Under the pieces are notes generated by a model. The model was not told the DNA's origin and did not search any database. It saw only the letters and a program-made list of their open reading frames with translations. From Clostridia bacterium (lineage in GTDB: Bacteria > Bacillota > Clostridia > Oscillospirales > CAG-272), in assembly GCA_017504605.1 (NCBI GenBank), contig JAFVQW010000041.1, positions 10,391 through 74,390 of the forward strand: a stretch of 64,000 nt of DNA. Direction: 5' to 3'. Below are positions 3 through 59,523 of this stretch, piece by piece. Both the position numbers and the translations under genes were made by a program. How positions within the stretch are numbered: position 1 is the stretch's first letter; each line of letters starts with the position of its first letter.

Positions 3-368
3 TGGGTTCCCGAGGCAGACACTCGCGAGGGAGGCTACGTGAGCGAGGATGCGGAGCAGACGGTCGGCACTCAGCGCAGCAAGAATGCGGGCAATCTCTA
101 CGGCTACGTGGATACTCTTGAGAGCTACGACACGGGCGACGACTTCCTCGGCAAGAATATCGAGGGCGTATATATGATGCTCGGAAACGTGCAGTATCTT
201 CTTGACACCTACGGTCGAGATTACAAGCAGTATACGAGTGCGACTATGCTCGAGCGTATAGCTGCCTTCGACCGCTATCGCGCCATCTACGACGGATACG
301 TTAAGAACGCCGTCAAGGGTGAGGCCGCGGCCTCTGAGATGGTAGGGAAGCTGCTCGGCTTGAAATAA
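3..368 (+). CDS. 3' end of a gene starting upstream of the window: C-terminal tail of a heparinase II/III-like secreted protein, paralog of 48114..52658
   Basis: The frame is open from nt 3 (WVPEADTREGGYV...). The segments WVPEADTR and YDGYVKNAVKGEAAASEMVGKLLGLK align with WAPAADTRGYI and YDGFIKNANAAAATARELVGELFGSR at the C-terminus of the 1514-aa protein. Confidence 0.65.
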   Translation, partial: WVPEADTREGGYVSEDAEQTVGTQRSKNAGNLYGYVDTLESYDTGDDFLGKNIEGVYMMLGNVQYLLDTYGRDYKQYTSATMLERIAAFDRYRAIYDGYVKNAVKGEAAASEMVGKLLGLK

Positions 369-395
369 CAAGCCTATAGCCTCCTCTGCTTTAAA

Positions 396-647
396 TCCAA
401 GCCGACGAAGAAGGCTTGGTATGGCATCACGCGTTAGCGTGTATGGAATCCCGACTTCGTCGGGTATGGCATCAATTCGCAGGGCGAACTGTATGGAATC
501 CCGACTTCGTCGGGTATGGCATCTGCCGAAGGCGGTATTTTCGTCGGCTTGATTCCATACCGTCTGTGACGGATTCCATACCGTCTGTGACGGATTCCAT
601 ACCGTCTGCGACGGATTCCATCCACGGCTTCGCCGTGATTTGAAGGA
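396..647. repeat. Hairpin-punctuated repeat array, type A (GTATGGMATC x5, then inverted GATTCCATAC x4)
   Basis: Forward 10-mers lie at 419, 441, 464, 491 and 514. Reverse-complement 10-mers lie at 551, 572, 593 and 614. Every 11-17 nt spacer is a 3-5 bp GC mini-hairpin (acgc-gtta-gcgt, ccgac-ttc-gtcgg, cgtc-tgt-gacg, acggc-ttc-gccgt). An outer stem pairs caagccgacgaa (398-409) with ttcgtcggcttg (540-551). The element recurs at 55789..56170. Confidence 0.85.
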
Positions 648-689
648 GGCGGAGGGGTTGGTTAAGTACCCCGCGCAGTTATTAATTAC

Positions 690-702
690 TTAGTTCGCAA
701 AT
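690..702 (+). promoter_or_regulatory. Conserved TTAGTTCGCAAAT motif upstream of P1 (also upstream of P5)
   Basis: An identical 13-mer lies 40 nt before the P1 ATG and 36 nt before the P5 ATG (56225..56237). In both cases an AT-rich TATAAAAC stretch follows. The function is not established. Confidence 0.3.
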
Positions 703-741
703 GCCTATATATAAAACAAAAACAGAAAAGGAGAAAAAACC

Positions 742-3700
742 ATGCGAAACTTAGCAAAAATCTTGGCTCTTTTGCTTGTTCTTGCTCTTTGCGTTACCGG
801 TATCGTCCTTGCCGTAAGCGCTGACGAGCCTGAGCAGACAATCACAGAGCCGACCTTCGCCGGTATCAAGCCTAATCTTGTAAGGATTGACTCGGCGATA
901 GCAGCACAGCTTGTAGAAGCAGGATTTAATTATCTTGAGTTTGCAGACGAGGCTGCCTTCAACACCGCGAATGCGGGCGGATACGACGCTCTCGCAGCAG
1001 GCGGTAAGACGGGCGAGATCAACGTAACGGGCGGTACTTACATCTACCTGCTCGCTAATACGACCCTGAAGAGTTATTCGATCTCCGCACACAACCTTAG
1101 CACCTGGATTAACCTTGGCGGCAATAAGATTACCTGGCAGTGCAACGGCGGTACCGGTTATGCCCACAACCTCGCTGTATTTGACGGTGACCTTTATCAT
1201 CCGTGGTTTAGTGGAACCTCCGGCCACGCCGCTTACAGAATGTCCGGCGGATCTACGTCTAACGTCTCAGTGGAAAAAGTTACTTTTTCGACGAACAGCA
1301 CGAGCGGCAGATTCTTCTCGAGCGAGGGGACTGCTACTCTCAATCTTTACGTTAATGATTCGACTGTTAACGCAGCCGGCAAGCCGTTCGTTCACATGGG
1401 ATTTGGCGCGGGTGACGCACCCACTGTCAATCTCATACTAAAGAAAACCAACATTACAACTTCCGGAGCAGTTGTAAACTTTGATAATAGTATCTGCACG
1501 GATAAATCGAATCTGTCGATTTATATCGACGGTGCGTCTAAGCTTGACGCTATCATACTTGCAAATGCTACGATCATCACTCCTACCGTTACCGTTGCAA
1601 ACGGTGCGAGCTTCACCGCCAACGGCCGTGCTGCAGTTCAGTCTGCGGGCACTCTCGTTACCGAGAGCGGTGCGGAATTATACAACACCGAGGAAGGCAC
1701 TCATCCCTTCGTTATGATGGTGCCCCCCACCATTCCCGACGATACCAACTTCACCGCGAGTGCGGACTTCAAGACTGCTAACGGCGCTTTCGTCGTATAC
1801 GCTAACGAGTTCGACTTCTACGCAGACCTTGAGGGTGGCGTTATCGACGGTCTCGTTGACGGCAATAGCGTTATCGTTGACGACAACGGTGACACCTTCC
1901 CCACCTCGGGCTACGTTTGTATGCTTCAGAACTACACGCTCCAGCCCGCGTCGACAATCAACGTTACCGGAAAGCTGAAGATTAACCTCGGCGGCACCAC
2001 CTTTACCGAGTCGAGTATTGATACTCTTACCGTCGCTGCTAACGGAGTTCTCGGCATTTACAACGGTAAACTTATAGATGGCTTAAACAGCAATAAACCC
2101 ACGAACACTCTCCTTGCCGGTACGACTCTCAAGGTTAAGAACGTTACCCTTGAGACGACGGGCAACTGGGAGAACTGGTCTTCCACCTTCTGCTTTAACG
2201 GTACGGCTGACATAAGCTTCGAGGACTGTGTTATAAACCATAAAAGCATGCAGACGACTATCGTTAAGCTTGCCGGCGCGGCTTCCTATAACATAGACCT
2301 TAAGAACGTTAATTACAGTAACAGCAAGGGCCACACGATAGCTACCGTGCACAACAGTGGTTACAACTATATTAATAAGAACGGCTCGTACTACGGCTTC
2401 GTATCCACCAACGTGGCGGCTACGATTAATCTCAGCGTTGACAAGGACTGCGTTGTAAACAGCGGTATTCTCGTTAACGCCATGACAACCGGTGCTAAGA
2501 TTACGCTTAACGCCGAGCTCGGATTTAAGATCTGGAGCAACGACTTCACCACCAGTTACATTGTGAAGTCTGTTCAGGATCTGGTAAATAAGAATAACGG
2601 TCTTCCTTGGAACCCCGAATCTGATTTGACCTATACCGCCGTCACTATCGTTGACACCCTTAACTTCACGGAGAACGGCGAGATTGTTACGGCTTCGTTC
2701 GCGAAGAACGGCGACTTCTACGTCGCTTGGAAGGCTGCCAGCGTTACCTGGTACGACAAGAACGGCGATGTTATCTCCTCCGTCGATAACCTCACTCCCG
2801 ATATGGCGCTCACCGCTCCTAAGGAGTTCGTTAACGAAATTATCGCGGTTGAGGGCGGCTACGCTATCAGAGGCGGCGCTTGGTCCGATACTGAGGGCGG
2901 CAGTGCGGTTGAAATTCCCACCGAGATTACTGCCGGCGCAGCTTACGCCTTCTACGAGGTATATACCGAGCAGGCAGCTACCATCGTCGTATTTGACGGC
3001 GAGGGCGGTAGTGCCGTTGATGCATATGCTACCACGAAGCTTACCAAGGATATCGTAGGCGAGTTCCCCGCAGGTGCGTACGTTCTCGTTTGCACCGACC
3101 TTACCGTTGATTACGGCGAAGTCGTTGATATGACCTTTGACAACTACAAGGGCGACCTTACCATCGACCTTGGCGGAAAAACCCTCACCCAGACGAGCTA
3201 CGGCTGGGGTATCGGTATGGCGTGGGCTACTCCCGCGGCAGGCGTTACCGTAACCATTAAGAACGGTGCTATCAACGTTGCTACCACCGCTACCAGCCAG
3301 AATGACATTGCAACTCTTATCTCGGGCACGGGCGCAGGTACGCTTAAGTTCCACGGCGTTGACATCACCACCCTTGGCCACGTAGGTAACATCAAGGCAG
3401 GCAGCGTTGTATTCGAGCTCTGCACCATCAAGCAGCCCAATACCGCTACCAACTGGTCTACGTTCACAATTGCCGACGTAAGCGCGGAAACGAGCGTCGA
3501 CCTCCAGCTCCTCGGAACCTGTCTGAACGTTCAGCAAAATAACGGCGCAAGGTTCACTAGCATAAATGCGGGAACGTACGCGAAGAACATCAGCATCACC
3601 GTTTCCGACTACGAGGGTACGTACTCCTATATCAGGAGTGCATATCTCTACACCTTCACGAGCAAGGGAACCGAAAAGCTTCACGCAGATACCAAGCTTA

Positions 3701-4842
3701 GCTTCACGCTCGAGAACTGCTACGTAAGTGCATACAACAACATGATATCGGGCTGCGGCACGTTCCTTTGGGACACCGACGGCACGGGTACCTATGCGGC
3801 GAACGCTGCGCTTGATAAGCAGAACGTCTCCTTCACCTTCGACAACTTCTTCTATTCGAGAAACGACCTCTTTGATTATGAGAAGAGAAAGAGCCACGTA
3901 ATTCTTAAGACGGCTAACCTCAACGCGTATAAGATAGTTTCGACGGCGACCTCGAGCAACAGCTTTATTGCAATTCCCGAGCTCAATATAGACGTTAACC
4001 TTACGCTTTACAGCGACTTCAACCTTAACCTCTATATTCCCACCGACTTCGTGGCAGACCAGATTACCTATCTCGGTCAGGTTATATTCGATAAGTCGCT
4101 TGCCGACACCTACGACGTAGTTGACGGAAAGTATAAGATAGTTATCGAGAACATTGCTCCCAACAAGGCTGCGAAGAGCATAGAGCTCGGCTTCGTATTC
4201 AACGAGACCGTAACCTTCAACGAGGGCACGAGTATGAGAGACAGAGACATATCTCATACTCTTACCGCAAAGTATTCGGTAATCAAGTATGCGGCTGACC
4301 TCATCGCTACCAACGACGCTAAGAGCGTTGCAGCTATGAAGGCTCTTCTCGGCTACGTTGACGCAGCATATGACAACTTCGACGGCGACGAGAGCGACGA
4401 GGCTACCGTAGCTCTTCTTGACGAGCTTATCGCTGAGAACGGCGTTGCTGCATTCCTTGCGGGCTACACTCCCAAGGCGAGTGAGGGCGACACCGACTTC
4501 GTTACGGTCACCGGCGTTACCGCTGCCTTCCAGATTGGCGCCGTATCTAAGCTCTACGTGACGTTCCCCGCAGGCGCTGAGTGGTCTATCGTAGGCGACA
4601 AGCTTACTAAGACCGGCAAGGGCGGCGAGTGCGTAATCGAGCTTCCCGCATACGCTCTTACCGACGTGCTTACCATAACCGTTGGCGGCGAGACTGCTAC
4701 CTTCTCCTTCGGAGAGTACGCAGAGTATCTTATGAATGACGGCATTGACAACGCGACAGAGGACGCTGTTCTCGTTGCAATGTACGCATACGGCGAGACT
4801 GCAAGAGCTCTCAAGGCTCAGGTCGACGCCGAGAATGCATAA
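742..4842 (+). CDS. P1: 1366-aa secreted protein, largest (three-module) member of the paralogous P family, function unknown
   Basis: Has a ribosome-binding site (aaaaggag) and a Sec signal peptide (MRNLAKILALLLVLALCVTGIVLAVSA/DEP). Three modules each start [GA]Y[VI]..L and lead to INLGG/IDLGGxxLT. Also contains a VTWYDKNGD...GGAWSDTEGG segment and the family C-terminal domain (LTLYSDFNLNLYIP ... FSFGEYAEYLMNDG ... MYAYGETARALKA). Confidence 0.9.
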   Translation: MRNLAKILALLLVLALCVTGIVLAVSADEPEQTITEPTFAGIKPNLVRIDSAIAAQLVEAGFNYLEFADEAAFNTANAGGYDALAAGGKTGEINVTGGTYIYLLANTTLKSYSISAHNLSTWINLGGNKITWQCNGGTGYAHNLAVFDGDLYHPWFSGTSGHAAYRMSGGSTSNVSVEKVTFSTNSTSGRFFSSEGTATLNLYVNDSTVNAAGKPFVHMGFGAGDAPTVNLILKKTNITTSGAVVNFDNSICTDKSNLSIYIDGASKLDAIILANATIITPTVTVANGASFTANGRAAVQSAGTLVTESGAELYNTEEGTHPFVMMVPPTIPDDTNFTASADFKTANGAFVVYANEFDFYADLEGGVIDGLVDGNSVIVDDNGDTFPTSGYVCMLQNYTLQPASTINVTGKLKINLGGTTFTESSIDTLTVAANGVLGIYNGKLIDGLNSNKPTNTLLAGTTLKVKNVTLETTGNWENWSSTFCFNGTADISFEDCVINHKSMQTTIVKLAGAASYNIDLKNVNYSNSKGHTIATVHNSGYNYINKNGSYYGFVSTNVAATINLSVDKDCVVNSGILVNAMTTGAKITLNAELGFKIWSNDFTTSYIVKSVQDLVNKNNGLPWNPESDLTYTAVTIVDTLNFTENGEIVTASFAKNGDFYVAWKAASVTWYDKNGDVISSVDNLTPDMALTAPKEFVNEIIAVEGGYAIRGGAWSDTEGGSAVEIPTEITAGAAYAFYEVYTEQAATIVVFDGEGGSAVDAYATTKLTKDIVGEFPAGAYVLVCTDLTVDYGEVVDMTFDNYKGDLTIDLGGKTLTQTSYGWGIGMAWATPAAGVTVTIKNGAINVATTATSQNDIATLISGTGAGTLKFHGVDITTLGHVGNIKAGSVVFELCTIKQPNTATNWSTFTIADVSAETSVDLQLLGTCLNVQQNNGARFTSINAGTYAKNISITVSDYEGTYSYIRSAYLYTFTSKGTEKLHADTKLSFTLENCYVSAYNNMISGCGTFLWDTDGTGTYAANAALDKQNVSFTFDNFFYSRNDLFDYEKRKSHVILKTANLNAYKIVSTATSSNSFIAIPELNIDVNLTLYSDFNLNLYIPTDFVADQITYLGQVIFDKSLADTYDVVDGKYKIVIENIAPNKAAKSIELGFVFNETVTFNEGTSMRDRDISHTLTAKYSVIKYAADLIATNDAKSVAAMKALLGYVDAAYDNFDGDESDEATVALLDELIAENGVAAFLAGYTPKASEGDTDFVTVTGVTAAFQIGAVSKLYVTFPAGAEWSIVGDKLTKTGKGGECVIELPAYALTDVLTITVGGETATFSFGEYAEYLMNDGIDNATEDAVLVAMYAYGETARALKAQVDAENA

Positions 4843-4855
4843 GGAGGGACATAAA

Positions 4856-4966
4856 ATGAAAAAGTATGAATCTCCCGAAATCAAAATCACGAGCGTAGAA
4901 GCATCGGATATTATTACCGTGTCCTACGGTAGTACCCCCTGGCTTAACGCAGGATTTGAGTGGTAA
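4856..4966 (+). CDS. Conserved 36-aa peptide MKKYESPEIKITSVEASDIITVSYGSTPWLNAGFEW
   Basis: AAGGAGGGA lies 6 nt upstream of the ATG, and the gene starts 13 nt after the P1 stop. A second copy at 59409..59519 is 29/36 identical, with 9 codons differing only synonymously. Confidence 0.7.
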   Translation: MKKYESPEIKITSVEASDIITVSYGSTPWLNAGFEW

Positions 4967-4973
4967 AAGCCAC

Positions 4974-5206
4974 GTTCCATATCCCCCTCGCCCTCGGGCG
5001 AGGGGATATGGAGTTATATTGCTCGCGCGGCGAGCAGTTATATTGTTGCTTCGCAACAGTTATATTCGCCTTGCGGCGAGTTAGATTAAAGTGAAAGTTG
5101 AAAACCGAGAGTTGAAGGTGACCGTATACATTTTCAATTTTCCGTTTTCCATTTTCAATTAAAATAGCGCGCACAGCGCGCATTCTATACACCCCGGGAG
5201 GTAATT
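4974..5206 (+). repeat. Conserved intergenic cassette, copy 1 (strong hairpin + AGTTATATT/hairpin array + AGTTGAA/TTCAATT arms + 5' leader of P2)
   Basis: Near-identical to 8389..8625 and related to 59524..59713. Contains a 15-bp stem at 4977..5011 (ccatatccccctcgcc/ggcgaggggatatgg). AGTTATATT occurs at 5012, 5036 and 5058 (AGTTAGATT at 5079), separated by mini-hairpins. A gcgcgc-aca-gcgcgc hairpin precedes the ribosome-binding site GGGAGG. Confidence 0.85.
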
Positions 5207-8200
5207 ATGAAAAAAATGAGAAGGCTTTTTGCTCTTTTGACCGTGGCGGCGCTTCTGTGTGCCGCGCTCACGCTCGCGGTGGGCGCGAATACCGACGGCG
5301 CGGGAGCCGAATATCTTGACGAGGTGCCCGAGGACCTGAGCTTCACCGCGACTTCCGAGCTCGCGGCGGCCTCCGGCAGCTACGTCGTCTATGAGAGCGA
5401 GCTCGACTTCTACCGCGACCTCGAGAACGGCGTTATCGACGGCCTCGCGGACGGTGAGAGCGTTATATCCACAAAGACCTTCACGGATTTCCCGACCTCG
5501 GGCTACGTGTGTATGCTTAAGAACTTCACCCTTCAGCCGAAGACGGTCGGAAGCCCCGTAAGCATTCCCGCGGGCGGCTCGCTTAAGATTAATCTCGGCG
5601 GTCACACCTTCACCGAGAAGGGCTGTGCGGGCAAGAGCGGAAACACCGACGGCTGTACCCCCATATCCGTCGGCGCCGGTGCTACACTCGGCTTCTATAA
5701 CGGCTCTCTTGTGGATAGCCTGTCGAGTAAGTTTACCACCAACCTCATGGCCGCGGGTGCGAGACTCGAGCTTCGGGATATCAACCTCACCGCGAGAATG
5801 ACCTGGGAGAACTGGTCGAGCACCTTCCAGTTCAACGGCGCGGGCAGTGTGCTTATGGATAACTGCAAGGTCACTCAGGGCACCCAGGTAACCGTATTCT
5901 ATATGAACGGCAACAGTACTCTTGACTTCGATATTCGGGGGCTTGACTATACCGACAACGGAACGCACACCCTCTACAACAAGAACACCGGTGCCGTGCA
6001 GAATAACGGAGCCTTCTACGGTATGATTTCGACCTCGAGAGCGGGTGCAACCCTCAATCTTAACGTTGACGGCGACACCGTCGTTCGCTCGGGCAACCTC
6101 GTAAACTGCTCCGTCTCGGGAGCTACGGTAAATCTCAACGCCGAGGTCGGCTTCACAATGGCGCGCGAGAGCTTCGTTAACGATTACATACAGCACTCCG
6201 CGTTCCAGAACTTCAGCTCCGTCGACAGGCTCAGCGTTATCGTCGACGGCGTCGTTGACAGCGAGAGCAACGCTACCTTCGTTTCATCGGGTGGCCTCTA
6301 CGTTCTTAAGATAATTGATGCAACGATTTATTGGTACGACGAGCACGGCGTGCTTCTTTTCGAGCAGAGTGCCGTGTCGGGTGAGATTCCCGCGTACGAC
6401 TACGCGCTCCCTGCGTTCGGTGTTTTTGGCGACGCGGCCTACAAGCTCACCGCGGGCGGCTGGGCTCTCTCGGCCGACGGTGACGTTCTCGACGAGCTTT
6501 CCCCCGTTATGAAGTCTGAGGGCGAGAGAAAATATTACTACGTTCCCGAGAAGACCGCTCTTGCGGTTGCCGTCTTCTCCGATGACACCTGTCGGAGCAT
6601 TGTCGGCGGCTGGGTCGACAGACAGATAACGAGAGAGCTTCTCGCTACAATCCCCGCGGGTGCCTACGTTAAGCTCTTCGGCGATATAGGCGTGAACCCC
6701 GGTCTCACGGATGCCGCCGCTACTGTAATGGATAATTACGCAACGGGTATAGTCTTTGACCTCTCGGGCTACACGATGGTTCACCTGAAGGAGGGCGAGT
6801 CGGCTAAGCGCTGGGCCCCCCTTGACGGCAAAACCATCACCTTCAAGAACGGAAAAATGCAGGTAATAGGCGAGGACAGCCTCATCTGTTCCGAGGCAAG
6901 CGGCGGCAGCATCAGGCTCTATGACGTTCTGCTCGTCTCGGATGCCAAGACCGCGCCCATTCTCGAGCTTCGCTCGGGCAGGGTAGAGCTATATGGCGGC
7001 TCGATATTCTCGCTCGGCACGACTCCGATTTCCTGTAATGCCTACAGCTCCTCCTCGAGCGCTACGCTTACGCTCGGGCTCCACGGAGTTGATATAGATG
7101 CGGCCGATAATCCTCTTATGACCGTCTCCGTCGCGCAGAAGGCCGACAGGGCGGCCGCCGTAGACGTCACGGTCGGCGCGTATGACGACGTGCCCACCAC
7201 CCTTCGCTCGGGCTCGTTTATTTCCTTCGGTGATATGACGGCTCTCTCGAGGGCCACCACCGTCACCGTATCCGTAAGAGACACCTACGCTCTCCTTACG
7301 GGCGAGGCTCTCGTCGGTGCGGACGGCGCTATTGCGACCTGGTACGATGCCGTGACGGGCAACTCCGCGGCAGACACCGCGACCGAGGCTCGCAATATAA
7401 GGCTTTCCTTCGACAATTATTACACCAACCGTCGGCTTACGCAAATCGGCTCGGCGAGCCTCGAGTGCGGCGTTACGATCACAGCGGAGGGTATGGGCCG
7501 ATACACCGTAATTTACAGTGCGCCGAAGCTCGAGGGCCCCATGGCCTCTCTCACTCTCGAGAGCGACTTCGACCTCAACCTCTACGTTCCACAAAGCTCG
7601 AACGTAGTTAAGATAATGATAGGCGATGCGGTTCTCTTCGACCGTAACGATCCCACAACCTACGAGCTCTCCGAGGGCGTTTACAGATTCGCTATATCGG
7701 GCATATCCCCCGAGAATGCGGCAAGCTATATCGCTCTTGATATAACCTACGTCGACGAGATCGTGGTTCCCGAGGTGGGGAAGGCCGAGCTCGACTTCAC
7801 CGTCCGCGCCTACTACTCGGTGATAAATTATGCCGAGGACCTTCTCGAGAGTGCCGACGGCACCACCGAGGCTAAGAACGCTATGAGGGCGCTCCTCGCA
7901 TACGTTCGCGCGGCGTATGACAACTTTGAGGGCAGTGGCAGCCCCGAGCTTCTTTCAAGACTTGACAGCCTTTACACCGAGTACGGTGCAGGGGCGTACG
8001 TTGACTCGCTCGCGGGCGATATTCGCGGCGATGATAGCGACTTCGGTGCTGAGAGCGGAATTACCGCACAGTTCGCCATAGGCTCGGTAACGAAGCTCTA
8101 CATCAGCTTCCCCGAGAGCGTGGACTACGTCATCACCGACGCCGAGAGCGGCGTCACGGTGGCTATCGGCACGGGCAGAGCCTGCACGGTAGAGCTCCCC

Positions 8201-8383
8201 GCATATCTTCTTGCCGAGACTCTTGAGATTACCGTCGGCGACAAATCCGCTATCTTCTCCTTCGGCGAGTATGCCGATGCGCTTATGAATGACGGCACAG
8301 AGAACGCCTCCGAGGATGCGGTGCTCCGTGCTATGTACGCGTACGGCAGGGCGGCGAAGGCGCTTCGCGCGGCTAAGGCCTGA
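5207..8383 (+). CDS. P2: 1058-aa secreted protein of the P family
   Basis: Signal peptide MKKMRRLFALLTVAALLCAALTLAVGA. Family motifs present: YVVYESELDFYRDLENGVIDGLADG, GYVCMLKNFTLQP...KINLGGHTFTE, IYWYDEHG, FDLSGYTMVH, LTLESDFDLNLYVP, FSFGEYADALMNDG...MYAYGRAAKALRA. Confidence 0.9.
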   Translation: MKKMRRLFALLTVAALLCAALTLAVGANTDGAGAEYLDEVPEDLSFTATSELAAASGSYVVYESELDFYRDLENGVIDGLADGESVISTKTFTDFPTSGYVCMLKNFTLQPKTVGSPVSIPAGGSLKINLGGHTFTEKGCAGKSGNTDGCTPISVGAGATLGFYNGSLVDSLSSKFTTNLMAAGARLELRDINLTARMTWENWSSTFQFNGAGSVLMDNCKVTQGTQVTVFYMNGNSTLDFDIRGLDYTDNGTHTLYNKNTGAVQNNGAFYGMISTSRAGATLNLNVDGDTVVRSGNLVNCSVSGATVNLNAEVGFTMARESFVNDYIQHSAFQNFSSVDRLSVIVDGVVDSESNATFVSSGGLYVLKIIDATIYWYDEHGVLLFEQSAVSGEIPAYDYALPAFGVFGDAAYKLTAGGWALSADGDVLDELSPVMKSEGERKYYYVPEKTALAVAVFSDDTCRSIVGGWVDRQITRELLATIPAGAYVKLFGDIGVNPGLTDAAATVMDNYATGIVFDLSGYTMVHLKEGESAKRWAPLDGKTITFKNGKMQVIGEDSLICSEASGGSIRLYDVLLVSDAKTAPILELRSGRVELYGGSIFSLGTTPISCNAYSSSSSATLTLGLHGVDIDAADNPLMTVSVAQKADRAAAVDVTVGAYDDVPTTLRSGSFISFGDMTALSRATTVTVSVRDTYALLTGEALVGADGAIATWYDAVTGNSAADTATEARNIRLSFDNYYTNRRLTQIGSASLECGVTITAEGMGRYTVIYSAPKLEGPMASLTLESDFDLNLYVPQSSNVVKIMIGDAVLFDRNDPTTYELSEGVYRFAISGISPENAASYIALDITYVDEIVVPEVGKAELDFTVRAYYSVINYAEDLLESADGTTEAKNAMRALLAYVRAAYDNFEGSGSPELLSRLDSLYTEYGAGAYVDSLAGDIRGDDSDFGAESGITAQFAIGSVTKLYISFPESVDYVITDAESGVTVAIGTGRACTVELPAYLLAETLEITVGDKSAIFSFGEYADALMNDGTENASEDAVLRAMYAYGRAAKALRAAKA

Positions 8384-8388
8384 CGGCT

Positions 8389-8625
8389 GTTCCATATCCC
8401 CTCGCCCTCGGGCGAGGGGGATATGGAGTATATTGCTCGCGCGGCGAGCAGTTATATTGTCGCTTCGCAACAGTTATATTCGCCTTGCGGCGAGTTAGAT
8501 TAAAGTGAAAGTTGAAAACCGAGAGTTGAAAGCTGTGCCGTTTTTTGCACTTTCAATTTTCCATTTTCCATTTTCAATTAAAATAGCGCGCACAGCGCGC
8601 ATTCTATACACCCCGGGAGGTAATT
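8389..8625 (+). repeat. Conserved intergenic cassette, copy 2 (upstream of P3)
   Basis: Same hairpin (8392..8426), same three AGTTATATT/hairpin units and same leader as copy 1. Identity continues through the first 21 nt of the downstream CDS (atgaaaaaaatgagaaggctt). Confidence 0.85.
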
Positions 8626-11600
8626 ATGAAAAAAATGAGAAGGCTTACGTCGTTTGTTCTCGTGCTCGCGCTTATAGCGGCGGTGCTCGCGAGTATGCCC
8701 GCCGACACGGCACTCGCGGCAGAGGCGGGGAATAGCGAATACCCAACGCCCGATGCTGCTCTTGCTGAGACAGCTACGTCGGATACGAGAGTGAGAAGAA
8801 TTACAGATACGACCTCGCCGACGGAGTATTCGACGGCATAGCACTCGGTAAGTCGGTTATCGTTGCCTCGCTTTCCAATAAGGTAAGCGCGACGTTTTCA
8901 CCGTCCACAACGGCTAACGGATATATAGTTTGCTTAAAGGACGTCGACCTCGTCGGCTCGGGCACGAATAATCGCTTCCAGATGGGCGCGACTCAGGAGC
9001 TCACCGTCGACCTTTCGGGTCACAAGATGAATATGCTCGGCGAGATATCGATTGGAGGCGCGGGCGGCATTATGTCCTCCGTCCTCACCGTTAAAAACGG
9101 TACGATGATGCTCGAGGGCTCGCTTCAGTCCTCGGGGAAATCTATGTATCAGCTTATCGCACTCCGCCGCGGAGCGAAGATGTATCTCAACAACGTCGAC
9201 GTTGTTCACGGCAAGACGGCGAGGTATTCCATTTTCATTTACGATAACGGCGGCAGCGTTTATATGACGAACTCCTCTCTCGACCTCGGCCCGCGCACCT
9301 TCTGCGCGCTCTACCTTACGAGCTTGAACTGCACCTGTAATGACTGCGCACAGGACAAGACGACACGCGAAACTCAGGAGTTTATCTTTGACGGAGTTAC
9401 CGTCTACTCGGCACAGGTTCTTTTCACTGTAAACCCGAAGGCGCACGGCTTGGACGGCGACTATTACAACGCGGTTGCAGACATCGCCTTCAAGGGCGGC
9501 TCCAAGATTAAAACGACCTCCCGAGCCCCGAAGAGCCTCTTTACCTTCGGTGACGAGTCTAAGAACGCGGCGGCAATCGCGGCGATGAGGGCGTCGAAGA
9601 TGAACCTCACCTTTGAGGAGGGAACGGCGTTCTCAGAGGCGGCCTTCCTCGACGGCGAGCTCGCGGCTAAGTACACTCTTACGGTCGTTGACAAGAACGG
9701 AGACCCGATTACCGACTATCGGACGGGATATTCCGCGGACGACACCTTCCCCGAGATGATTGCGAGAAACGAGTACACGGTCAGCTGGTATGCCTACGAC
9801 GGCACGCTCCTTGAGGCTATTAAGTACGCCGAGGGGGCCACTCCCTCGCACTCCGCTCCCGAGCACCCCGACAATCTCACGATGGATGCCGAGGGCAACG
9901 TGCTTCTTAAGCGCCACGACGGCTGGTCTCGGACCGAGGGCGCAACGACGGCTGAGGCTATTACGGCTGTTTTGGCGGATACCGCCTATTACGCCGTATA
10001 CGCCGACGAGCTCGCGGCAGTTTATACCAAGGACTCGGGCGGCAACCTCACCGCGGGCTTCCGCGATGCCGATATCGGCTCCGAGGCTATAGCGGCACTC
10101 GCCAACGGCTCCAAGCTTTATCTTAATACCGATGCTACTCTTTCGCAAAATATAAGCACACCGAACCTAAGCATTGAGCTTCAGGGAAATACCCTCACGC
10201 TCCTCGGCGCGGCCCTTATCCCGAGTGGCACTATGACCGTAAGCGGCGGTACGCTTCTTGCCGACGGAGTATGCCCCTTCGTTATCGACGGTGGCGCGAT
10301 GCTCACTCTTAACGGCGTTTCGGTCTCGGCCATCGATGCAGTAATTGCCGAGATAAATAACGGAGTAATAGAGGTTGTCGGCGGCGAGCTCCGCGCGAGC
10401 TCTGCTACTATGATGGGCGCTATCGCGGCCTACGGTAATGCGGAGGTGATAATTCGCGGTGCGAGCGTGCGCACGAGAAACGCATTCGGCAGCTCCGCCG
10501 TCGTATATGCGGCGTCCGGCGCCTCGATCGTAAGCGTAAGCGTAACGAACAACGGCGGCACCGACCCCCGCTTTAACGTAGACGGCACTCTCATTTACGC
10601 TGACGGCGACGTCGGCTACGGAGTGGTTGAGGCTACGGTTGTAGATACCGATATTTTCCATCTCGGCGAGCTCGTTGCGACCTCCGCAGAGACTGCCGAT
10701 TTCGTCGACGTAATTATCCGAAACGCAAAAATCGGACGTCAGTCGAGCGGCGCTAATTTCCGCACCCAGAACGGCGCGCCCCTTTATACACCCCTTGACC
10801 CCAATACTCCCGTGACCGACATAGATGTCGAGTTCGAGGTTTACTCCTCGCTCACCGTTTCTAAGGAATTCACTCTTAACTTCTACATTCCCGAGGGCAG
10901 CCCCGTTGTCGACGTTATTGTCGGCGGCGTGTCCTACTTCGACGTTAACAGCCTTGATTCTTACGAGAAGACGGTGCACGAGGGCGTGTCCTGCTATCGC
11001 GTTGAGTGCGGCAGCTTCACCGCAAAGAACGCTATCTCCGCGCGCCGCGTGCAGTACGTTATCGAGCACGAGGGAGGGCGTTACTCGCTCGACAGCACCT
11101 ATTCGATTGTTGAGTACTGCGCCGACGTTCTCGCGGGCGACTATTCCGACATTACCAAGACGCTGATGCTCGACATTCTCTGCTATATCAGAGAGGGCTA
11201 CGACTTCTTCGTCGGCGGTGGCGCCACCGAGGAGGAGCTTGCACTTGTTGATAGCCTCATCGGTGACTACGATTCCAAGGAGGAGATACCCGCGGACACC
11301 GCCGACCTCTCGGCACTCTCGGGCCTCGTTTCCTCGGTACAGTTCGCGGCAAATGACAGAATTACGATGAGAATAGCTCTCACCGAGGCCGCAAAGAGCG
11401 AGAAAATAAGAATTTATTACGGCACCGCGGCCGCGCTCGCGGTGAACGGCACCGATGCCGATTTCCTTGAAATCGACGTTCCCCTCTTCGCTCTTACCGA
11501 TACTATACAGATAGTCGTCGGCGAGGCGAGCGCGGAGTACAGCTTCGCGGCCTACGTCGCGGCGGTTGCCGACGCCTACTCCGAGAGCTGCCCCGAGCTC

Positions 11601-11705
11601 TGCGATATGCTCGCGGCGACTCTTCGCCTCGGCAAGAGCGCGAGAAGGTACGAGGGCGCGGGACTGCCCGATACGCCGAGTATCGAGCCCGACTTCGAGT
11701 TCTAA
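8626..11705 (+). pseudogene. P3: P-family member interrupted by a frameshift near 8767-8775 (or an assembly error)
   Basis: The signal-peptide ORF 8626..8841 (MKKMRRLTSFVLVLALIAAVLA...) is in frame 1. Family homology (SYVGYESEKNYRYDLADGVFDGIALG...VDLSGHKMN) continues in frame 0, which opens at 8769 after a TGA at 8766-8768 and runs to 11705. The 8982 ATG is internal. Confidence 0.7.
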
Positions 11706-43824: not shown

Positions 43825-44718
43825 TCAGAGCGCCCTTTTGTTTGTGAAGGCACGCTTCTTGTATGCCACGGGGGTCATACCCGTATAGCGCTTGAAGGTC
43901 TTTGAGAAATAGTTCGGCGTGTCGAAGGCGAGCCGCTCGGCAATCTGCTTGACGGTGTAGTCTCCCTCGCGCAGATACTGCTTTGCCGCCTCTACCTTAA
44001 GCTTTGTAAAGTAGGCCATAACCGTCTTGCCCGTGGCGCGCTTGAACTCTCGGAATATGTAAGCGCGGCTGTATCCGACCGCCGCCGAGAGCTCGTCAAC
44101 CGATAGCGTGCTCTCGATTTTTTCTCTCATAACCGCGATGCAGTCGTCCACCGCCTTCGATTGCAGCTTCTCCGTGGGAAGGAAAATACTGTTGCTCCTG
44201 CCGTTTTCCGTCATTTGGCGCATAAGGCTGATGAGAAAAAGCTCAAGATAATTTTTTATCAGCTGCTGACCGCCGAGGGTGGGGTGCTCGAGAAGGTGCA
44301 GGCCGGTGTCCTCGGGAGTGGAGAAGGGAATATCGAAGGTACGCTTCGCCTCCTCTACGATGCTGTAAATGAAGCGCACGAGGCTCTTGTCGGGCCGCAC
44401 GCGGCAGCCCTCGAAAAAGCGCATAGCCTCGGACTTACATTCAAAGGAAATTACAAAGACGTTCGGCGCGCGTCGGCCGTTGGCGCTGTGCGCGTGAAAT
44501 TCTCCGGGCTTGTGAAAGGCAACCGTGCCCTCCTCAAGCGTGTATTCCTCGTCACCAGCCGTACAGAGAATGCTCTCCTTGTCGGCGTACACCAGCTCCC
44601 AGAAATCGTGTACCTCCCCCGAGAAGCTGAAATTCTTTTCAAATTCAAAGTAGTGTATAGTGACGATTTTATTGATTACAATGAGATTTTCGAGCTTGTG
44701 TTTGAAATATTTCTTCAT
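43825..44718 (-). CDS. AraC-family transcriptional regulator, divergent from the secreted-protein operon
   Basis: N-terminal cupin-like sensor and C-terminal AraC HTH (YIFREFKRATGKTVMAYF...PNYFSKTFKRYTGMTPVAYKK). Confidence 0.85.
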   Translation of the reverse strand: MKKYFKHKLENLIVINKIVTIHYFEFEKNFSFSGEVHDFWELVYADKESILCTAGDEEYTLEEGTVAFHKPGEFHAHSANGRRAPNVFVISFECKSEAMRFFEGCRVRPDKSLVRFIYSIVEEAKRTFDIPFSTPEDTGLHLLEHPTLGGQQLIKNYLELFLISLMRQMTENGRSNSIFLPTEKLQSKAVDDCIAVMREKIESTLSVDELSAAVGYSRAYIFREFKRATGKTVMAYFTKLKVEAAKQYLREGDYTVKQIAERLAFDTPNYFSKTFKRYTGMTPVAYKKRAFTNKRAL

Positions 44719-45098: not shown

Positions 45099-48095
45099 AT
45101 GAAAAAAACGAACGGGAAGAGGATAGCACTTTTGGCGGTGACTGTGCTTATGTGTGTTGCCGCGGTCTTCACGCTTGCCACGTCTGCGGCGAGGGTGGGC
45201 AGTCTCGACGAGGCTAACCGACTTCTTGAGCAGGTGAAAAAGGTAGATATAGGAGAGGACAGCGCGGCGGCGTGCGAGGAAATGTCGAGCGCCATCTTCA
45301 ATCTTCGCTCCTACATACTTCGTATGCCTCTTGACGAGAGCGAGAGCGGCTATAACGAGTTCGCCTTCGAGTACGGCAAGGAGCAGTTCAGATATGCCGA
45401 GCTGATAATGAAGGTGTTCGACGAGGCGAAGGAGAAAACCGATGCAAGCGGCAATCCCTCCCCCGACGTTCCCGCGATGCAGAGCGCGCTTGACGACATG
45501 TTCGTGCTTCTTTCCGCCGATGATTTTATGATAGAGCGAGCGCTCGTTTATAATGAGGGTGAGGACGGAGTTTTCAGTGCGGATTACGATGCTCTTAACG
45601 AGAAATACGCCGAGGCTCCCTTCGGCTGCGTAGAGGCTATGCTTGACAATCTTCCGAACGAGGCGGATATGGCGGCGGCGCTTACCAACGCGGCGGCGTT
45701 CATCGAGCGAAACGGAATTAATATTAATGATGCAAGCAACGCGAGCATCAAGGAAAAGCTTTTTAACGCGAGACTTGCTTGCGCTAACGGGCTTCTCGAT
45801 GCGGTTGCCGACGATGCCGCGGGGATTGACGCGCAGAAGAACGGCGTGGCACTCCGTAAGCTCTCGGCGTTTATCAAGGCAAACCCTCTCGGTAAGGACG
45901 AGACCGAGGGCAGCGATTATATGACCTTTATGGCCGCGTATGAGCAGCGTATTGAGGTACAGAACGAGGCGCTTCGCGCCGCTCGCGAGGCTCTTACGTC
46001 CAAGGCGAGCTTCGGCGACCACTACGCGGGAGTGCTCTTCTTCAAGGGAACGGCCTTCGCCGTAGGAAATCAGTCTATAAACTATGCCGACGTTGACAGT
46101 GGCGCCGACGGCGACAACGAGTACTTCACCGTCAGATATGAGAACACAAAGGTGACCCATACTCATATAAGCACCGCGAGCGTTCCCGACAACAGTCGCG
46201 GCGTCGTCGTGGAGTTTGACTTTACCACCTTCGGCGATATGCCGAGCGGCTCGGTCATCATCGAGCGCGGCTCGTACACCTTCCCCGACGGACAGACCTC
46301 GGGAGTTGAGTTCTTTAAGATAAACAAGGACGGTGTCACGATAGGAAACACGACCGTCGCGGGGCTTGTACAGCCCGGCGAGTGGACGCACTTCACCCTC
46401 ATTATCGACCCCGATTGCAATGCTACGCTCTACGTCGATTACGTGCTTGTCGGCAGTGTGAGCCTTAAGGTAAGAAACTACGTCTTCGAGATTGGCGCTA
46501 TAAGAATGGGCGCACAGGCGGCCTCGGGTGAGTTCTCGATTGACAATTATATGGCGTATACCGGCACCTCGATACGCGACTGCGACTATCTCGCACAGCT
46601 CCGTGCCGATACCGAGGCCTACTTCGTACGTCTTTATCAGGGACTTAAGCACAGGCTTACCGACCACAGGGTGCTTCTCAACATCTACGACGAGTGCGCG
46701 GCGCTCGTTAACGAGTTCACTCCCGAAACCGAGGAGGGCATAGCGGCCGTCGAGGCCTTCCGCGCTATGAGCCGCTCCGACGTGCAGGATAAGGCGCTCG
46801 AGAATGCGAGAGAGAAGCTCGCGGAGAAGATAACCGCAATCAAGGATAAGCCGCGCGACAGCTCGACCTCTAAGGAGCGCATAGCGATGCTCTCCAACCT
46901 TGATAAATTCCTTGCCTACAACGAGGGCATTATGAGCGAGACCGAGAACGACGAGCTCTACGTTGCGATACAGAAAATAAAGAAGCAGCTCGACGACGAG
47001 GACTTCGTAGCCCTTCTCGTTACGGCTGTGAACGACTTCTTCGCCGAGAGCGATGCGTTCAAAATTAAAGCAAAATACGATATGGCAAAGAAATACATTA
47101 CCGAGGCCGAGAGCGACGAGGAGATTATGGCTATGCGCCGTCTCTCGGGCTTTGCGAGCTTCTCGGTTGCGTACGAGCGCTTTAAGACCGAGGGTCCTAC
47201 CCACTACGGCGACCTCGTCAGCATTGACAACACCGAGATTTTCGTGTCTATGATGAAATACGTTGCGTCGCTTATTTCCGACCCCGATTGGAAGACCAAG
47301 CATTACGACGAGATTGACAAGTACATAATGCTTGCCTCCGAGCGCGTGGAGGATGGAGCCTACGACGAGCTTTACAGCGGCTTTAGCGAGGCCTACGAGG
47401 TATATCTCGAGTACGCTCACTACTTCTTCCTCGAGCGTCAGCCGGGATATATTACCGAGCTTCGCGGCCTGCTTGATAAATGCATAGCCGCGGTTCACCC
47501 GGTTGAGAAGGCGGGCGTGATCGCGTACATCGGCGACTATATAGACAACACCGACCTTGATTTTGAGAACTCCGAGATTATAGCACTCGTTGACGAGTAC
47601 GAGGAGCTTCTCGCGACCCTTGACGGTGCCGACGGCGCGTACGAGGAGCTTCGCACGGAGTATACCGAGAAATTCATTGAAGCCGTGGCGCTTATTGCCG
47701 AGGCGGAGGGATACGCCGCTCGCCGAGCGCTCGCGGACGAGGCGCGTGTATATTATACGCACATTAACAGAACGGGCGACGGGGTCTCGGCCGCAGAGGC
47801 AGAGTACCTTGAGATTGAGGCCGCTCTTGGCGCGGTGGAGGCTGTTGCAAAGAGATTTATCTCGGAGTATGCGCTTTTAGCCTCTGCACGTACTAACGAG
47901 GAGCGCTTCGCCGCACTCGTTACCCTCTCGGCTCTTTACGCCGAGGGAATAGAGACCGAGGTGGCGGGTGCCGCCGCGGCAATTGACGGATACAATTCCG
48001 CAATCGACGATATGAACGAATTTATAAACAAGCATAACGGCGAGCTTGATGAGCTGCTTCGCGCATCGCTTGCAGCGCTCGTCAAGGCTAAATAA
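45099..48095 (+). CDS. 998-aa secreted, mostly alpha-helical protein with a central LamG/concanavalin-like insert; function unknown
   Basis: Ribosome-binding site ggagg and signal peptide MKKTNGKRIALLAVTVLMCVAAVFTLATSA. Flanks are rich in A, E and L. The central segment YFTVRYENTKV...GEWTHFTLIIDPD...FSIDNYMAYTG looks LamG-like. Confidence 0.8.
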   Translation: MKKTNGKRIALLAVTVLMCVAAVFTLATSAARVGSLDEANRLLEQVKKVDIGEDSAAACEEMSSAIFNLRSYILRMPLDESESGYNEFAFEYGKEQFRYAELIMKVFDEAKEKTDASGNPSPDVPAMQSALDDMFVLLSADDFMIERALVYNEGEDGVFSADYDALNEKYAEAPFGCVEAMLDNLPNEADMAAALTNAAAFIERNGININDASNASIKEKLFNARLACANGLLDAVADDAAGIDAQKNGVALRKLSAFIKANPLGKDETEGSDYMTFMAAYEQRIEVQNEALRAAREALTSKASFGDHYAGVLFFKGTAFAVGNQSINYADVDSGADGDNEYFTVRYENTKVTHTHISTASVPDNSRGVVVEFDFTTFGDMPSGSVIIERGSYTFPDGQTSGVEFFKINKDGVTIGNTTVAGLVQPGEWTHFTLIIDPDCNATLYVDYVLVGSVSLKVRNYVFEIGAIRMGAQAASGEFSIDNYMAYTGTSIRDCDYLAQLRADTEAYFVRLYQGLKHRLTDHRVLLNIYDECAALVNEFTPETEEGIAAVEAFRAMSRSDVQDKALENAREKLAEKITAIKDKPRDSSTSKERIAMLSNLDKFLAYNEGIMSETENDELYVAIQKIKKQLDDEDFVALLVTAVNDFFAESDAFKIKAKYDMAKKYITEAESDEEIMAMRRLSGFASFSVAYERFKTEGPTHYGDLVSIDNTEIFVSMMKYVASLISDPDWKTKHYDEIDKYIMLASERVEDGAYDELYSGFSEAYEVYLEYAHYFFLERQPGYITELRGLLDKCIAAVHPVEKAGVIAYIGDYIDNTDLDFENSEIIALVDEYEELLATLDGADGAYEELRTEYTEKFIEAVALIAEAEGYAARRALADEARVYYTHINRTGDGVSAAEAEYLEIEAALGAVEAVAKRFISEYALLASARTNEERFAALVTLSALYAEGIETEVAGAAAAIDGYNSAIDDMNEFINKHNGELDELLRASLAALVKAK

Positions 48096-55600: not shown

Positions 55601-55777
55601 TCGAGCCTTGTTATCAAGGTGGACGGAAATACCGCTACCTTCTCCTTTGCCGAGTACATCGAGATGCTCCTCGACGGCACGGATATGATGCGCGACAGAC
55701 TTCTTCGCGCAATGTACGCCTACGGCAGATGCGCCGAGCTCCTTCGTGCGGAGCAGCTCTCGAGCGGATTGCTTTGA
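52676..55777 (+). CDS. P4: ~1033-aa secreted protein of the P family
   Basis: Ribosome-binding site aaaggagag 5 nt before the ATG at 52676 (an alternative ATG at 52655 overlaps the upstream stop). Signal peptide MKRYGKILVLLIALAALLTAVFPAVSA. Motifs: YVIYENVRDFNDDIENGVIDGMIDG, VDLGGHTLTH, WATPAAGVTVT, LTLYSDLDLNLFIP, FSFAEYIEMLLDG...MYAYGRCAELLRA. Confidence 0.9.
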   Translation: MKRYGKILVLLIALAALLTAVFPAVSAEEGVASSAPAAPSYLPPSVTVTAADALQGATYVIYENVRDFNDDIENGVIDGMIDGENVLVTRGTETTMALPASGYVYLLADVTVPQVFKLSGGAVLQINCGRKKLTLGKVRNVISGSSLAIFNGALNPSAWATEGTLETTDTAAYIAFRDLDITTNDGYGSARFIWARSAVYGYFENLTYDSSAGRKRFIWLASNGTQDYTFKNVNITQNAKNPDPVVELAGQACNVSLYFDKDTKINSKLFNSALAAGSQLLVSAEVGCKIKNNDWILDPSLVSTNLKLDFISPLGVSARFVDVGGIFVLTEAISEILWHGVDGAPIGEKISIFEGDVIVPPELPKTVSEKEGGGYTVTEYVWAREIGGEAVDIDSLRGSVNLYAVAGEPLDATLALLGADGKLVDAWITDRLTKDTVSNMPAGSTLLMLADLSVDYGASADMTFDSYMGDITVDLGGHTLTHVSYDGKTDVAWATPAAGVTVTLQNGTVNISNSGGKYGTLVSGEGEGTIKFHRVDIVSAGGPAIVNLNAGSFIMELGRIDTNGSGTYRPFRIGNGATKAVTASLELYGVYHSGKGGDVFVSLYSARNANNNIKVVVGEYEGTYSWIKTGYMLQFSQANIGSASKYEFIYDGAYVYGGNAHVTGRPKWDSKAVDAALDEKNISFYFDNFIGMRPEADYFTSTTSVLLTTASINIDRALTTVYKGSEVYTVGGLLDPDFGLMSSLTLYSDLDLNLFIPVDVVGGINTISADGTLIFDRSRAEDYPIYVDRRTGERYYVASVRDIAPNLAAKQIELSINYSMCFTYAGESAETELNATVLRSFSVVDYIETLFDTEGVSETALDTARALSAYIIAAYDYFDVDSIFHVDTWEKLLDIALEVGAEEFVGSFGEIHAPEGDTDFGPEAGVTAQFGIGTVTRLELSFGAVRDYEIYSGAKLIAEGRADGVTLELHAYELCSSLVIKVDGNTATFSFAEYIEMLLDGTDMMRDRLLRAMYAYGRCAELLRAEQLSSGLL

Positions 55778-56170: not shown

Positions 56171-56224
56171 GCTCTAAAAATGCATAATGCAGAATTCATA
56201 ATGCATAATGCATAATTAATTAAT

Positions 56225-56237
56225 TTAGTTCGCAAAT
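56225..56237 (+). promoter_or_regulatory. Conserved TTAGTTCGCAAAT motif upstream of P5
   Basis: Identical to 690..702. Preceded by AT-rich ATAATGC repeats (56180-56215). Confidence 0.3.
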
Positions 56238-56272
56238 CCCAAATATAAAACAATCAAGAAAGGAAAAGCAAG

Positions 56273-59408: not shown

Positions 59409-59519
59409 ATGAAAAAATATGAATCCCCCGAAATCGTAATTACGAACGTTAATTCCTCGGACATTATTACCGCATCCTACGGTACTACCCCTTGGCTTAA
59501 CGCGGAATTCGAATGGTAA
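59409..59519 (+). CDS. Conserved 36-aa peptide MKKYESPEIVITNVNSSDIITASYGTTPWLNAEFEW (second copy)
   Basis: AAGGAGGGA ribosome-binding site, 13 nt after the P5 stop. Same length, start and stop as 4856..4966, with a mix of synonymous and conservative differences. Confidence 0.7.
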   Translation: MKKYESPEIVITNVNSSDIITASYGTTPWLNAEFEW

Positions 59520-59523
59520 AACC

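Follow-up and report, generated by a model that had tools for sequence, protein, structure and literature searches.

Probable ancient paralogous copies of a lyase and secreted-protein gene module at two ends of a Clostridia chromosomal window, with likely gene conversion and lineage-specific hairpin arrays

The two ends of a 64,000-nucleotide (nt) stretch of a Clostridia bacterium (contig JAFVQW010000041.1; the whole stretch analysed is called the window) are probably ancient paralogous copies of one chromosomal gene module, in a reading that also includes gene conversion between the copies, hairpin arrays peculiar to this lineage and a putative function in polysaccharide breakdown. Each copy carries a polysaccharide-lyase-like gene, genes for large secreted proteins of one family (P1 to P3 on the left, P4 to P6 on the right), an open reading frame (ORF) of 36 amino acids (aa), and structured non-coding parts, namely the type A hairpin array, a promoter-proximal motif and a hairpin-rich cassette behind the 36-aa ORF. 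We compared positions 1-12100 with 45000-64000 by blastn, read the spacers directly as well, and took intact genes for comparison from L002 and L003, two other assemblies of the same organism from ruminant-gut metagenomes. P5 is identical to a hypothetical protein with locus tag IKA64_05515 (Clostridia bacterium, metagenome-assembled).

All nucleotide matches between the left and right ends are collinear and on the plus strand, and five of five reciprocal best protein pairs stand in the same order on the + strand. The two lyases are 44% identical over 1533 aligned positions (with the full left gene from L002), and the 1125-aa and 998-aa proteins encoded by the first genes of the modules are 30% identical over 847 aa. 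Among the P proteins, overall identity is 36% for P1 and P5, 39% for P4 and P5, and 33% for P1 and P2, while P3 and P6, at 26%, are reciprocal best paralogues within the genome; each locus has one additional P paralogue, P2 on the left and P4 on the right. A divergent AraC-family regulator heads each module. On the left this head was recovered from L002, which supplies 10 kb of sequence upstream of P1 with the regulator, the gene for the 1125-aa protein and a complete lyase-like gene; as it matches the right head, the module is larger than could be seen by a reader of the window alone.

These comparisons bear out the first-pass annotation of the window, which had described the same order and orientation of elements at both ends. 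Every element that it listed was found at or near the place it gave, and the conservation that it noted in the non-coding parts amounts, between left and right, to 88-96% nucleotide identity for type A and 78-82% for the cassette, with the motif exact at both ends. The alignment that it proposed as a check gives similarity that is collinear and extends beyond short motifs. The remainder of the heparinase-like gene, expected upstream of the window, is present in L002 and homologous to 48114-52658 along its whole length, and the second regulator sought upstream of the left module is the divergent AraC-family gene there. Two details of its list were revised, as the ORF given for P3 (8982 onward) is only the part downstream of a frameshift, and the copy number of the left type A array differs between assemblies. 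The frameshift is a single T lost near 8770 (8765-8775), which turns GAGTACAG into GAGACAG and does not lie in a homopolymer; it reflects either a genuine inactivating mutation or an error in the consensus. The true P3 start lies within the second cassette.

Related loci in other organisms indicate how old the duplication is. In L010 the whole left module has a syntenic orthologue, with a lyase gene, a P1-like gene, the peptide gene, a cassette-like spacer and P2-like and P3-like genes, followed downstream by trkH, trkA, AraC, rhaBAD, secG and RNase R. The right module is syntenic in L012, which carries a P6 orthologue, P0014, and behind it a homologue (45% over 204 aa) of the window gene next to P6; both contigs probably belong to one organism. 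P3 is ~33-34% identical to its L010 orthologue P0013 and 26% identical to P6, and P6 is 39% identical to P0014. In L005, from another organism, the end of a P4-like gene occupies the same position upstream of a P5-like gene. Because P3 and P6 are closer to the orthologues of relatives than to each other, and given the contexts of L012 and L005, both modules, extra P genes included, appear to predate the lineage split. As judged from these alignments, the modules are ancient paralogues at syntenic positions. The earlier claim of a segmental duplication with later divergence and exchange, and not independent acquisition, thus agrees with the collinear homologues, the mosaic P1/P5 pair described below and the synteny of both modules in a related organism, with the addition that the duplication is old and predates the split from the organism whose RhaA is 82% identical.

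Between the window and L010, identity is 82% for RhaA, 81% for the aldolase, 72% for TrkH, 49% for the lyase, 34% for P2, ~33-34% for P3 and 30% for P1; since P orthologues stand at ~30-34% where RhaA stands at 82%, the P proteins evolve far faster than housekeeping genes. Other relatives keep parts of the arrangement. L007 has a lyase-like gene (45% to the right lyase), 73 nt with the exact motif TTAGTTCGCAAAT, a P1-like gene, a 36-aa ORF, a 330-nt spacer and a P3/P6-like gene, and L009 and L005 have a variant of the promoter-proximal motif and the peptide gene directly behind the P gene. The distant P-family loci L013 and L015 lack the peptide, and L015 keeps a lyase-like gene followed by two P genes. 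We propose that the ancestral order was a divergent AraC regulator, a secreted protein of ~1000 aa, a lyase of ~1500 aa, the promoter-proximal motif, a P protein of ~1000-1400 aa, the 36-aa ORF, a structured spacer and a second P. Each module copy would then have gained its further P paralogue (P2 left, P4 right), and both copies with the full architecture would already have been present in the ancestor common to the related organism.

The P1 and P5 genes are mosaics, with a body that is 34% identical and a tail, the last 118 aa, that is 73% identical. Positions 4488-5022 match 59044-59574 at 82% nucleotide identity (blastn, E 1e-125). In a sliding codon alignment, amino-acid identity stays at 0.2-0.5 up to about codon 1250 of P1 and reaches 0.70-0.82 from there on; nucleotide identity is 0.77-0.86 from that codon to the gene end, and the peptide gene and the cassette prolong the similar stretch. 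Where residues are identical, third codon positions agree at ~0.8 in this tract against ~0.55 elsewhere. We extended the comparison of bodies and tails (last 118 residues) to nine P genes. All bodies are 23-39% identical pairwise, and tails are 73% (P1-P5 of the window), 70% (L010-L005) and 54% (L007-L009) identical within lineages against 32-50% between lineages. Tails thus cluster by genome and not by locus, which is the signature of concerted evolution. At the nucleotide level, L005 matches L010, and L009 matches L007, at 75-89% in three places only, namely the promoter/5' region, the 3' tail together with the peptide gene, and part of the downstream spacer. From these alignments, the tract has been homogenised within each lineage, and the homogenising process is most likely gene conversion. 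The last ~118 codons of P1 and P5, the peptide gene and the downstream spacer would have been copied repeatedly between the modules in this way, and so would the promoter/5' region. No silent cassettes, invertible promoters or site-specific recombinase were found, and no evidence was obtained for swapping of central P regions.

Conservation of the non-coding parts is of two kinds, the motif and the cassette core being common to several organisms and the arrays peculiar to this lineage. The motif TTAGTTCGCAAAT, a 13-mer, occurs exactly twice in the window, each time ~40 nt upstream of P1 or P5, and is found upstream of P1/P5-like genes elsewhere, exactly in L007 and as variants in L009, L005 and L010. 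The left and right cassettes are 78-82% identical in nucleotides (blastn). Just past the stop, cassette 1 has a G+C-rich hairpin and then three AGTTATATT+hairpin units; next come a long purine/pyrimidine hairpin ending in a U-rich tail, a small hairpin and the P2 ribosome-binding site. The AGTTATATT+hairpin units number three in cassette 1, three in cassette 2, one in the right cassette and none in L010, and the core common to L010, which keeps G.U pairs and a U-rich tail there, consists of the hairpin CCCCTCGCCCTCGGGCGAGGGG, a GTTTTCCAyTTTCAATT run and the ribosome-binding site. In the consensus fold, the G+C-rich hairpin starts ~11 nt past the peptide stop, and the long hairpin pairs a purine arm with a pyrimidine arm, includes several G.U pairs and ends in a U-rich tail; at 5107-5142 and again at 59614-59649 there is a 14-pair hairpin whose tail is T-rich. 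The G.U pairs can form in + strand RNA only. For none of the spacers did Rfam return a relevant match, whether gathering thresholds or E <= 1 were applied. Cassette 2 is 94-99% identical to cassette 1, and the orthologous P2-P3 junction in L010 measures 22 nt; cassette 2 therefore appears to be a recent local duplication that replaced the first P3 codons, and the copying of the cassette to the P2-P3 junction would have taken place in this lineage. The loop of the long hairpin of cassette 1 (5117-5144; L002 14376-14408) has two alleles, the window carrying the form of the right cassette and L002 that of cassette 2, which suggests conversion between cassettes within the population.

The 36-aa peptide is far better conserved than its neighbours. 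The left and right peptides are 81% identical, and the gene has 82% nucleotide identity within the genome against ~70% between organisms; between organisms the peptide retains ~70% amino-acid identity where the adjacent P proteins retain ~30%. Every complete copy has 36 aa, beginning MKKYESPE[IL] and ending YGxTPW[LG]xxxFEW, and the N-terminus is conserved like the C-terminus. Outside the organism's own assemblies, the peptide is kept in four complete and two partial loci, always directly behind a P1/P5-like gene. It has no match in Pfam or NCBIfam, a literature search with KKYESPE and TPWLN gave nothing relevant, and a metagenome scan with its back-translated N-terminus gave one chance match, an unrelated ORF that ends after 9 codons. 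A word-indexed protein search returned only 43-aa versions from this organism and not the 36-aa ORFs of L007 and L009, perhaps because the database leaves out very short products. A precursor of a ribosomally synthesised and post-translationally modified peptide was also considered. The 64-kb window and the gene lists of L007, L009 and L010 contain no maturation enzyme (radical SAM, cyclase), and the absence of a maturase gene near the peptide at any locus disfavours that reading, which we rejected.

The layout of an attenuator is present, with a short ORF that has its own ribosome-binding site, a hairpin past its stop and a terminator-like structure before the next gene. By analogy with clostridial cellulosome operons (PMC4423207), the G+C-rich hairpin and the U-tailed hairpin would act on + strand RNA as partial terminators or 3'-end stabilisers and set the relative expression of successive genes, and the 36-aa ORF, translated up to the first hairpin, may couple translation to the hairpin structure or modulate it. 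A more specific and rather unlikely proposal is that the P tail (~118 codons), the 36-aa ORF (MKKYESPE...YGxTPWLxxxFEW) and the spacer form an undescribed regulatory device of a fast-evolving family of secreted proteins, in which the nascent or free peptide would control hairpin read-through or stability and so set the next P gene, while the homogenised ends and the arrays would serve as recombination handles to exchange or resize P genes.

The type A arrays are 88-96% identical between left and right (blastn, E 1e-31 to 1e-41). Their unit GTATGGMATC occurs 15 times in the 64-kb window against 0.15 expected, which rules out chance, and is confined to the two type A regions. The left array (379..656) is predicted to fold strongly on either strand (z -5.6 and -7.6). 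Its hairpin sequences vary from unit to unit, the linkers of 9-10 nt are constant, and the whole array is one long palindrome. The outer arms are partly complementary (GCCTCC...AAATC and GATTTGAAGGAGGC), and the right copies are without the outer arm at one end. Relatives L005, L007, L009, L010 and L012 do not have type A arrays. The comparison of strains for copy number, suggested in the first-pass annotation, gives two tandem left copies in L002, one in the window, where the assembly may have collapsed a tandem, and an array shorter by one 21-nt unit in L003. The right array and the left array of L002 agree at the junction between their tandem copies, which indicates that the array was copied between the loci as a dimer. 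Within the window, arrays are limited to P-module spacers and are found in none of six housekeeping spacers. On this comparison of loci and assemblies, the arrays are lineage-specific and variable in copy number; the intergenic spacers of this lineage alone would have gained expandable arrays of short hairpins with constant 9-10-nt units, and type A would then have been copied between the loci as a tandem dimer. A third array lies behind the P6 terminator (63080-63240), with GTTATGA/hairpin and then TCATAAC/hairpin units, on the type A plan with other units. At the orthologous place L012 has just a plain terminator of 65 nt.

Both lyase genes are, by sequence, PL35/heparinase-II/III-like. Residues 807-1278 of the right lyase match the PL35 structures 8khw, 8khv and 9o3q at E 1e-27 to 1e-18, and the left lyase matches 8khv and 8khw at E 1e-20 and 3e-16; overall, the matches of both to PL35 glycosaminoglycan lyases cover ~450 residues at E 1e-27 to 1e-10. 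PL35 lyase structures have been described (PMC12088678). The Pfam family Hepar_II_III_C scores 23.3 bits for the right lyase, against a cut-off of 24, and gives no match at E <= 1e-4 for the left. At ~1500 aa, the lyases include large extra regions and a Cu_amine_oxidN1 domain.

The proteins P1 to P6 carry signal peptides and match nothing in Pfam or NCBIfam. When 1.84 billion representative proteins were searched exhaustively with a profile, 603 relatives were found, 71 of them below 1e-30. The most distant share just a domain of ~290 aa, which is at the extreme C-terminus in 134 of 143 and in some relatives is joined to GH2, sialate esterase (SASA), CE4 deacetylase, CBM or Ig-like domains. 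A word-indexed protein search recovered very few P relatives, a scan of a genome collection found a single distant locus, L004 (24% identity over the C-terminal domain), and a sequence search of the PDB with a 30-sequence P-family profile found nothing. The AlphaFold2 model of P5 (pLDDT 82) has two beta-rich regions, and comparison with the viral library BFVD gave one partial match with probability 1.00 (TM 0.54 over 325 columns) and many matches named beta-helix or pectate lyase. These models weakly suggest that P proteins contain two beta-helix-like regions. Modelled alone, the C-terminal domain of P5 (residues 745-1040, 58505-59392) reaches a pLDDT of 86.6 and a pTM of 0.83, and is predicted to form two beta-sheet-plus-helix halves with only a faint resemblance to MHC-like platforms; Foldseek found no similar fold for it in the PDB (best E 8e-3, TM below 0.2), and it belongs to no Pfam family. 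The most economical reading of the gene content is that the locus serves the sugar-regulated, extracellular breakdown of an acidic polysaccharide. Rhamnose catabolic genes adjoin the left module, and this adjacency, kept in the relative, hints at a substrate containing rhamnose.

The near-identity of the non-coding parts could in principle have a different origin from the modules themselves, with type A and the cassette hairpin units being copies of a mobile or self-propagating repeat that entered the two loci in separate events. Such a repeat would resemble repetitive extragenic palindromic (REP) sequences and bacterial interspersed mosaic elements (BIMEs), or miniature inverted-repeat transposable elements (MITEs). 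The arrays do share the REP/BIME-like trait of short imperfect palindromes clustered in spacers in both orientations, with units inverted between the left and right arms; orthologous spacers of relatives are without them, their copy number varies between assemblies, and the array after P6 follows the same plan with different units. We nevertheless regard this origin as unlikely. Within the 64 kb, type A occupies only two homologous positions, directly upstream of the P1 and P5 promoter regions, and the six housekeeping spacers carry no array; the tandem junction common to both loci points to the copying of an already dimeric array. By-eye inspection of type A showed no flanking direct (target-site) duplication of the kind expected of MITEs, no transposase or RAYT-like gene is in the gene annotation of the window, and the neighbouring coding sequence of the P1 and P5 tails is independent evidence of conversion. 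For that tract, in turn, strong purifying selection on a functional unit, without gene conversion, might be thought enough, since other organisms keep the peptide, the promoter motif and the cassette core, and no part of the P family is more widely conserved than the C-terminal domain. Selection alone is very unlikely to suffice, because the tails group by genome and third-position identity is raised within the tract; the lineage-specific hairpin arrays common to both loci also speak against it.

For the modules as a whole, separate horizontal transfer from different donors, with the common order reflecting a conserved operon design, would be in keeping with paralogue divergence as deep as that between organisms (lyases 44% left against right, 42-49% to those of L007 and L010) and with the star-like relationship of the P bodies. 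It is very doubtful, given that a related organism holds both modules at syntenic chromosomal positions and that the modules sit among housekeeping genes (trk, rha, RNase R, pheST, arg) in a window of even G+C content along its whole length, with no mobility genes in its annotation. Duplication of one ancestral module followed by conversion between the copies thus remains the reading that we prefer, and several observations count against parts of it. A sigma-70 consensus scan of the spacers found no convincing + strand promoter. The array census covers the 64-kb window, and dispersed copies elsewhere would favour a mobile-repeat origin. L005 and L010, like L007 and L009, come from different samples, and each pair is assigned to one lineage by sequence similarity; strong purifying selection on tail and peptide could add to their similarity. 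For P5, Foldseek against the PDB gave weak matches, none at E <= 0.001, in which beta-helix enzymes and tailspikes (PL6, GH55, GH28) recur and the top-ranked are other folds.

The features of the two loci are collected in Table 1.

Table 1. Features of the left and right modules and of the genes between them (positions in the window)
Feature	Position	Strand	Remarks
Left lyase 3' end, PL35/heparinase-II/III-like	3..368	+	31% to last 110 aa of right lyase, E 1e-10; full gene 1529 aa in L002
Type A hairpin array, one copy	~379..656	+	GTATGGMATC units in left arm, reverse-complement GATTCCATAC units in right arm, hairpins between units
P1 promoter-proximal region	681..741	+	TTAGTTCGCAAAT at 690-702, A-rich leader, ribosome-binding site
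P1, 1366-aa secreted P-family protein	742..4842	+	No Pfam or NCBIfam match
Shared tract, putative gene conversion (P1 tail, peptide gene, cassette)	4488..5222	+	Counterpart 59044-59730
36-aa ORF MKKYESPEIKITSVEASDIITVSYGSTPWLNAGFEW	4856..4966	+	Own ribosome-binding site AAGGAGGGA
Cassette copy 1	4967..5206	+	Order of elements given in the text
P2, 1058-aa P-family paralogue	5207..8383	+	Orthologue in L010
Cassette copy 2	8384..8625 as spacer, similarity to 8650	+	Reaches through first 8 codons of P3
P3	8626..11705	+	Frameshifted in window; intact 1026 aa in L002 and L003
Inter-locus genes			trkH, trkA; AraC regulator and rhaB, rhaA, rhaD; RNase R; trmD, rimM; uvrC; pheS, pheT; arginine biosynthesis
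AraC-family regulator, divergent from right module	43825..44718	-	HTH_18 and HTH_AraC domains
998-aa secreted protein, first gene of right module	45099..48095	+	Paralogue of left 1125-aa gene; weak Laminin_G_3 match
Right PL35/heparinase-II/III-like lyase, 1514 aa	48114..52658	+	PL35 structure matches
P4, P-family paralogue	52676..55777	+	39% to P5; 52676 likely start, good ribosome-binding site
Type A copies, two in tandem	55778-55993, 55994-56170	+	99% identical to each other
P5 promoter-proximal region	56215..56272	+	TTAGTTCGCAAAT at 56225-56237
P5, 1040 aa	56273..59395	+	Modelled with two beta-rich, beta-helix-like regions and a 296-aa C-terminal domain
36-aa ORF MKKYESPEIVITNVNSSDIITASYGTTPWLNAEFEW	59409..59519	+	Counterpart of left peptide
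Cassette, right copy	59520..59701 (feature row to 59713)	+	One AGTTATATT+hairpin unit, against three on the left
P6	59714..62929	+	Likely start 59714 after GGAGG; reciprocal best paralogue of P3

The 36 kb that separate the two loci consist of ordinary chromosomal genes according to the gene annotation of the window, and no tRNA genes lie in the window. Two long "spacers" among these genes, 19475-19896 and 28689-29165, contain small unlisted genes and are thus not non-coding; one of the small ORFs is SecG-like, and L010 carries SecG at the same position, and the other looks HPr-like from a by-eye reading of MISRSVTIKNSVGLHARPAT. The spacer after P3 (11706-12064) contains ATTTTGGCATAACCGCAAACGAAA twice, each copy with a terminator-like hairpin behind it, and the two copies flank ~190 nt that include the inverted sequence TTTTCGTTTGC. 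In the right locus, a 7-nt tandem repeat of five AATGCAT units (56179-56216) separates the truncated second type A copy from the P5 motif, and the left locus is without it. The minus-strand gene convergent with P6 contains a 12-nt tandem repeat of ten units (63262-63383) that encodes a C-terminal (EGLP)n, and its L012 homologue ends without this repeat. An alternative P6 allele was considered for L001, another assembly of this locus, where positions 13601-14098 correspond to the window from 59873 onward, with the switch 160 nt into P6. The sequence beyond the switch is AT-rich and unrelated to the window, so that it looks like a chimeric assembly end, and the allele was rejected.

Paralogous glycan-degradation loci and gene conversion are both well known. 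New here are the P family with its C-terminal domain, the conserved 36-aa gene, the co-conversion of tail, peptide gene and spacer, and arrays built of constant linkers and variable palindromes. A single pair of paralogous modules shows two processes, very fast divergence of secreted proteins and conversion that affects only regulatory and 3' segments. The analysis brings into view, for a Clostridia lineage of the ruminant gut, a protein family of ~600 representatives with an uncharacterised C-terminal domain, together with a strictly conserved gene of 36 aa that is passed over by most annotation pipelines and protein databases, and strain-variable hairpin arrays that follow a plan opposite to that of classical REP elements.

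The 36-aa ORF resembles leader and arrest peptides of the TnaC/SecM type in its short fixed length, the stable hairpin within ~10 nt and the conserved C-terminal YGxTPWLxxxFEW. This resemblance is a lead and not a test; the ORF here follows a gene and does not stand at the head of an operon, its N-terminus is equally conserved, and it has no sequence-family link to arrest peptides. The arrays are like REP/BIME clusters in that imperfect palindromes of variable copy number are clustered in spacers directly past stop codons, within operons for secreted glycan-degrading proteins or at their ends. They differ from REPs in a reversed plan, with constant linkers and variable palindromes, in that the array itself is one palindrome, and in that no REP-associated tyrosine transposase (RAYT)-like gene was seen in the annotation of the window.

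The homogenisation of ends per genome with diverging centres, recurring here in three lineages, is what concerted evolution of paralogous genes for surface or secreted proteins looks like; the present case differs in comprising just two loci, ~45 kb apart, without silent cassettes or a recombinase. With Gram-positive polysaccharide-utilisation clusters that contain heparinase II/III-like lyases, the modules share a divergent AraC regulator, large secreted proteins and a PL35-matching lyase domain, to which may be added relatives of the P family with GH2, SASA esterase, CE4 and CBM domains and the rhamnose genes beside the left module. As differences, the lyases here have ~1500 aa with large extra regions and a Cu_amine_oxidN1 domain, the P proteins lack Pfam, NCBIfam and PDB matches, a 36-aa ORF lies inside the module, and the module contains no transporter gene. 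In clostridial cellulosome operons, stem-loops control subunit stoichiometry through selective RNA processing and stabilisation (PMC4423207). The modules described here resemble those Clostridium operons (PMC4423207) in having predicted stable stem-loops at the 3' ends of genes, in operons for secreted glycan-degrading proteins.

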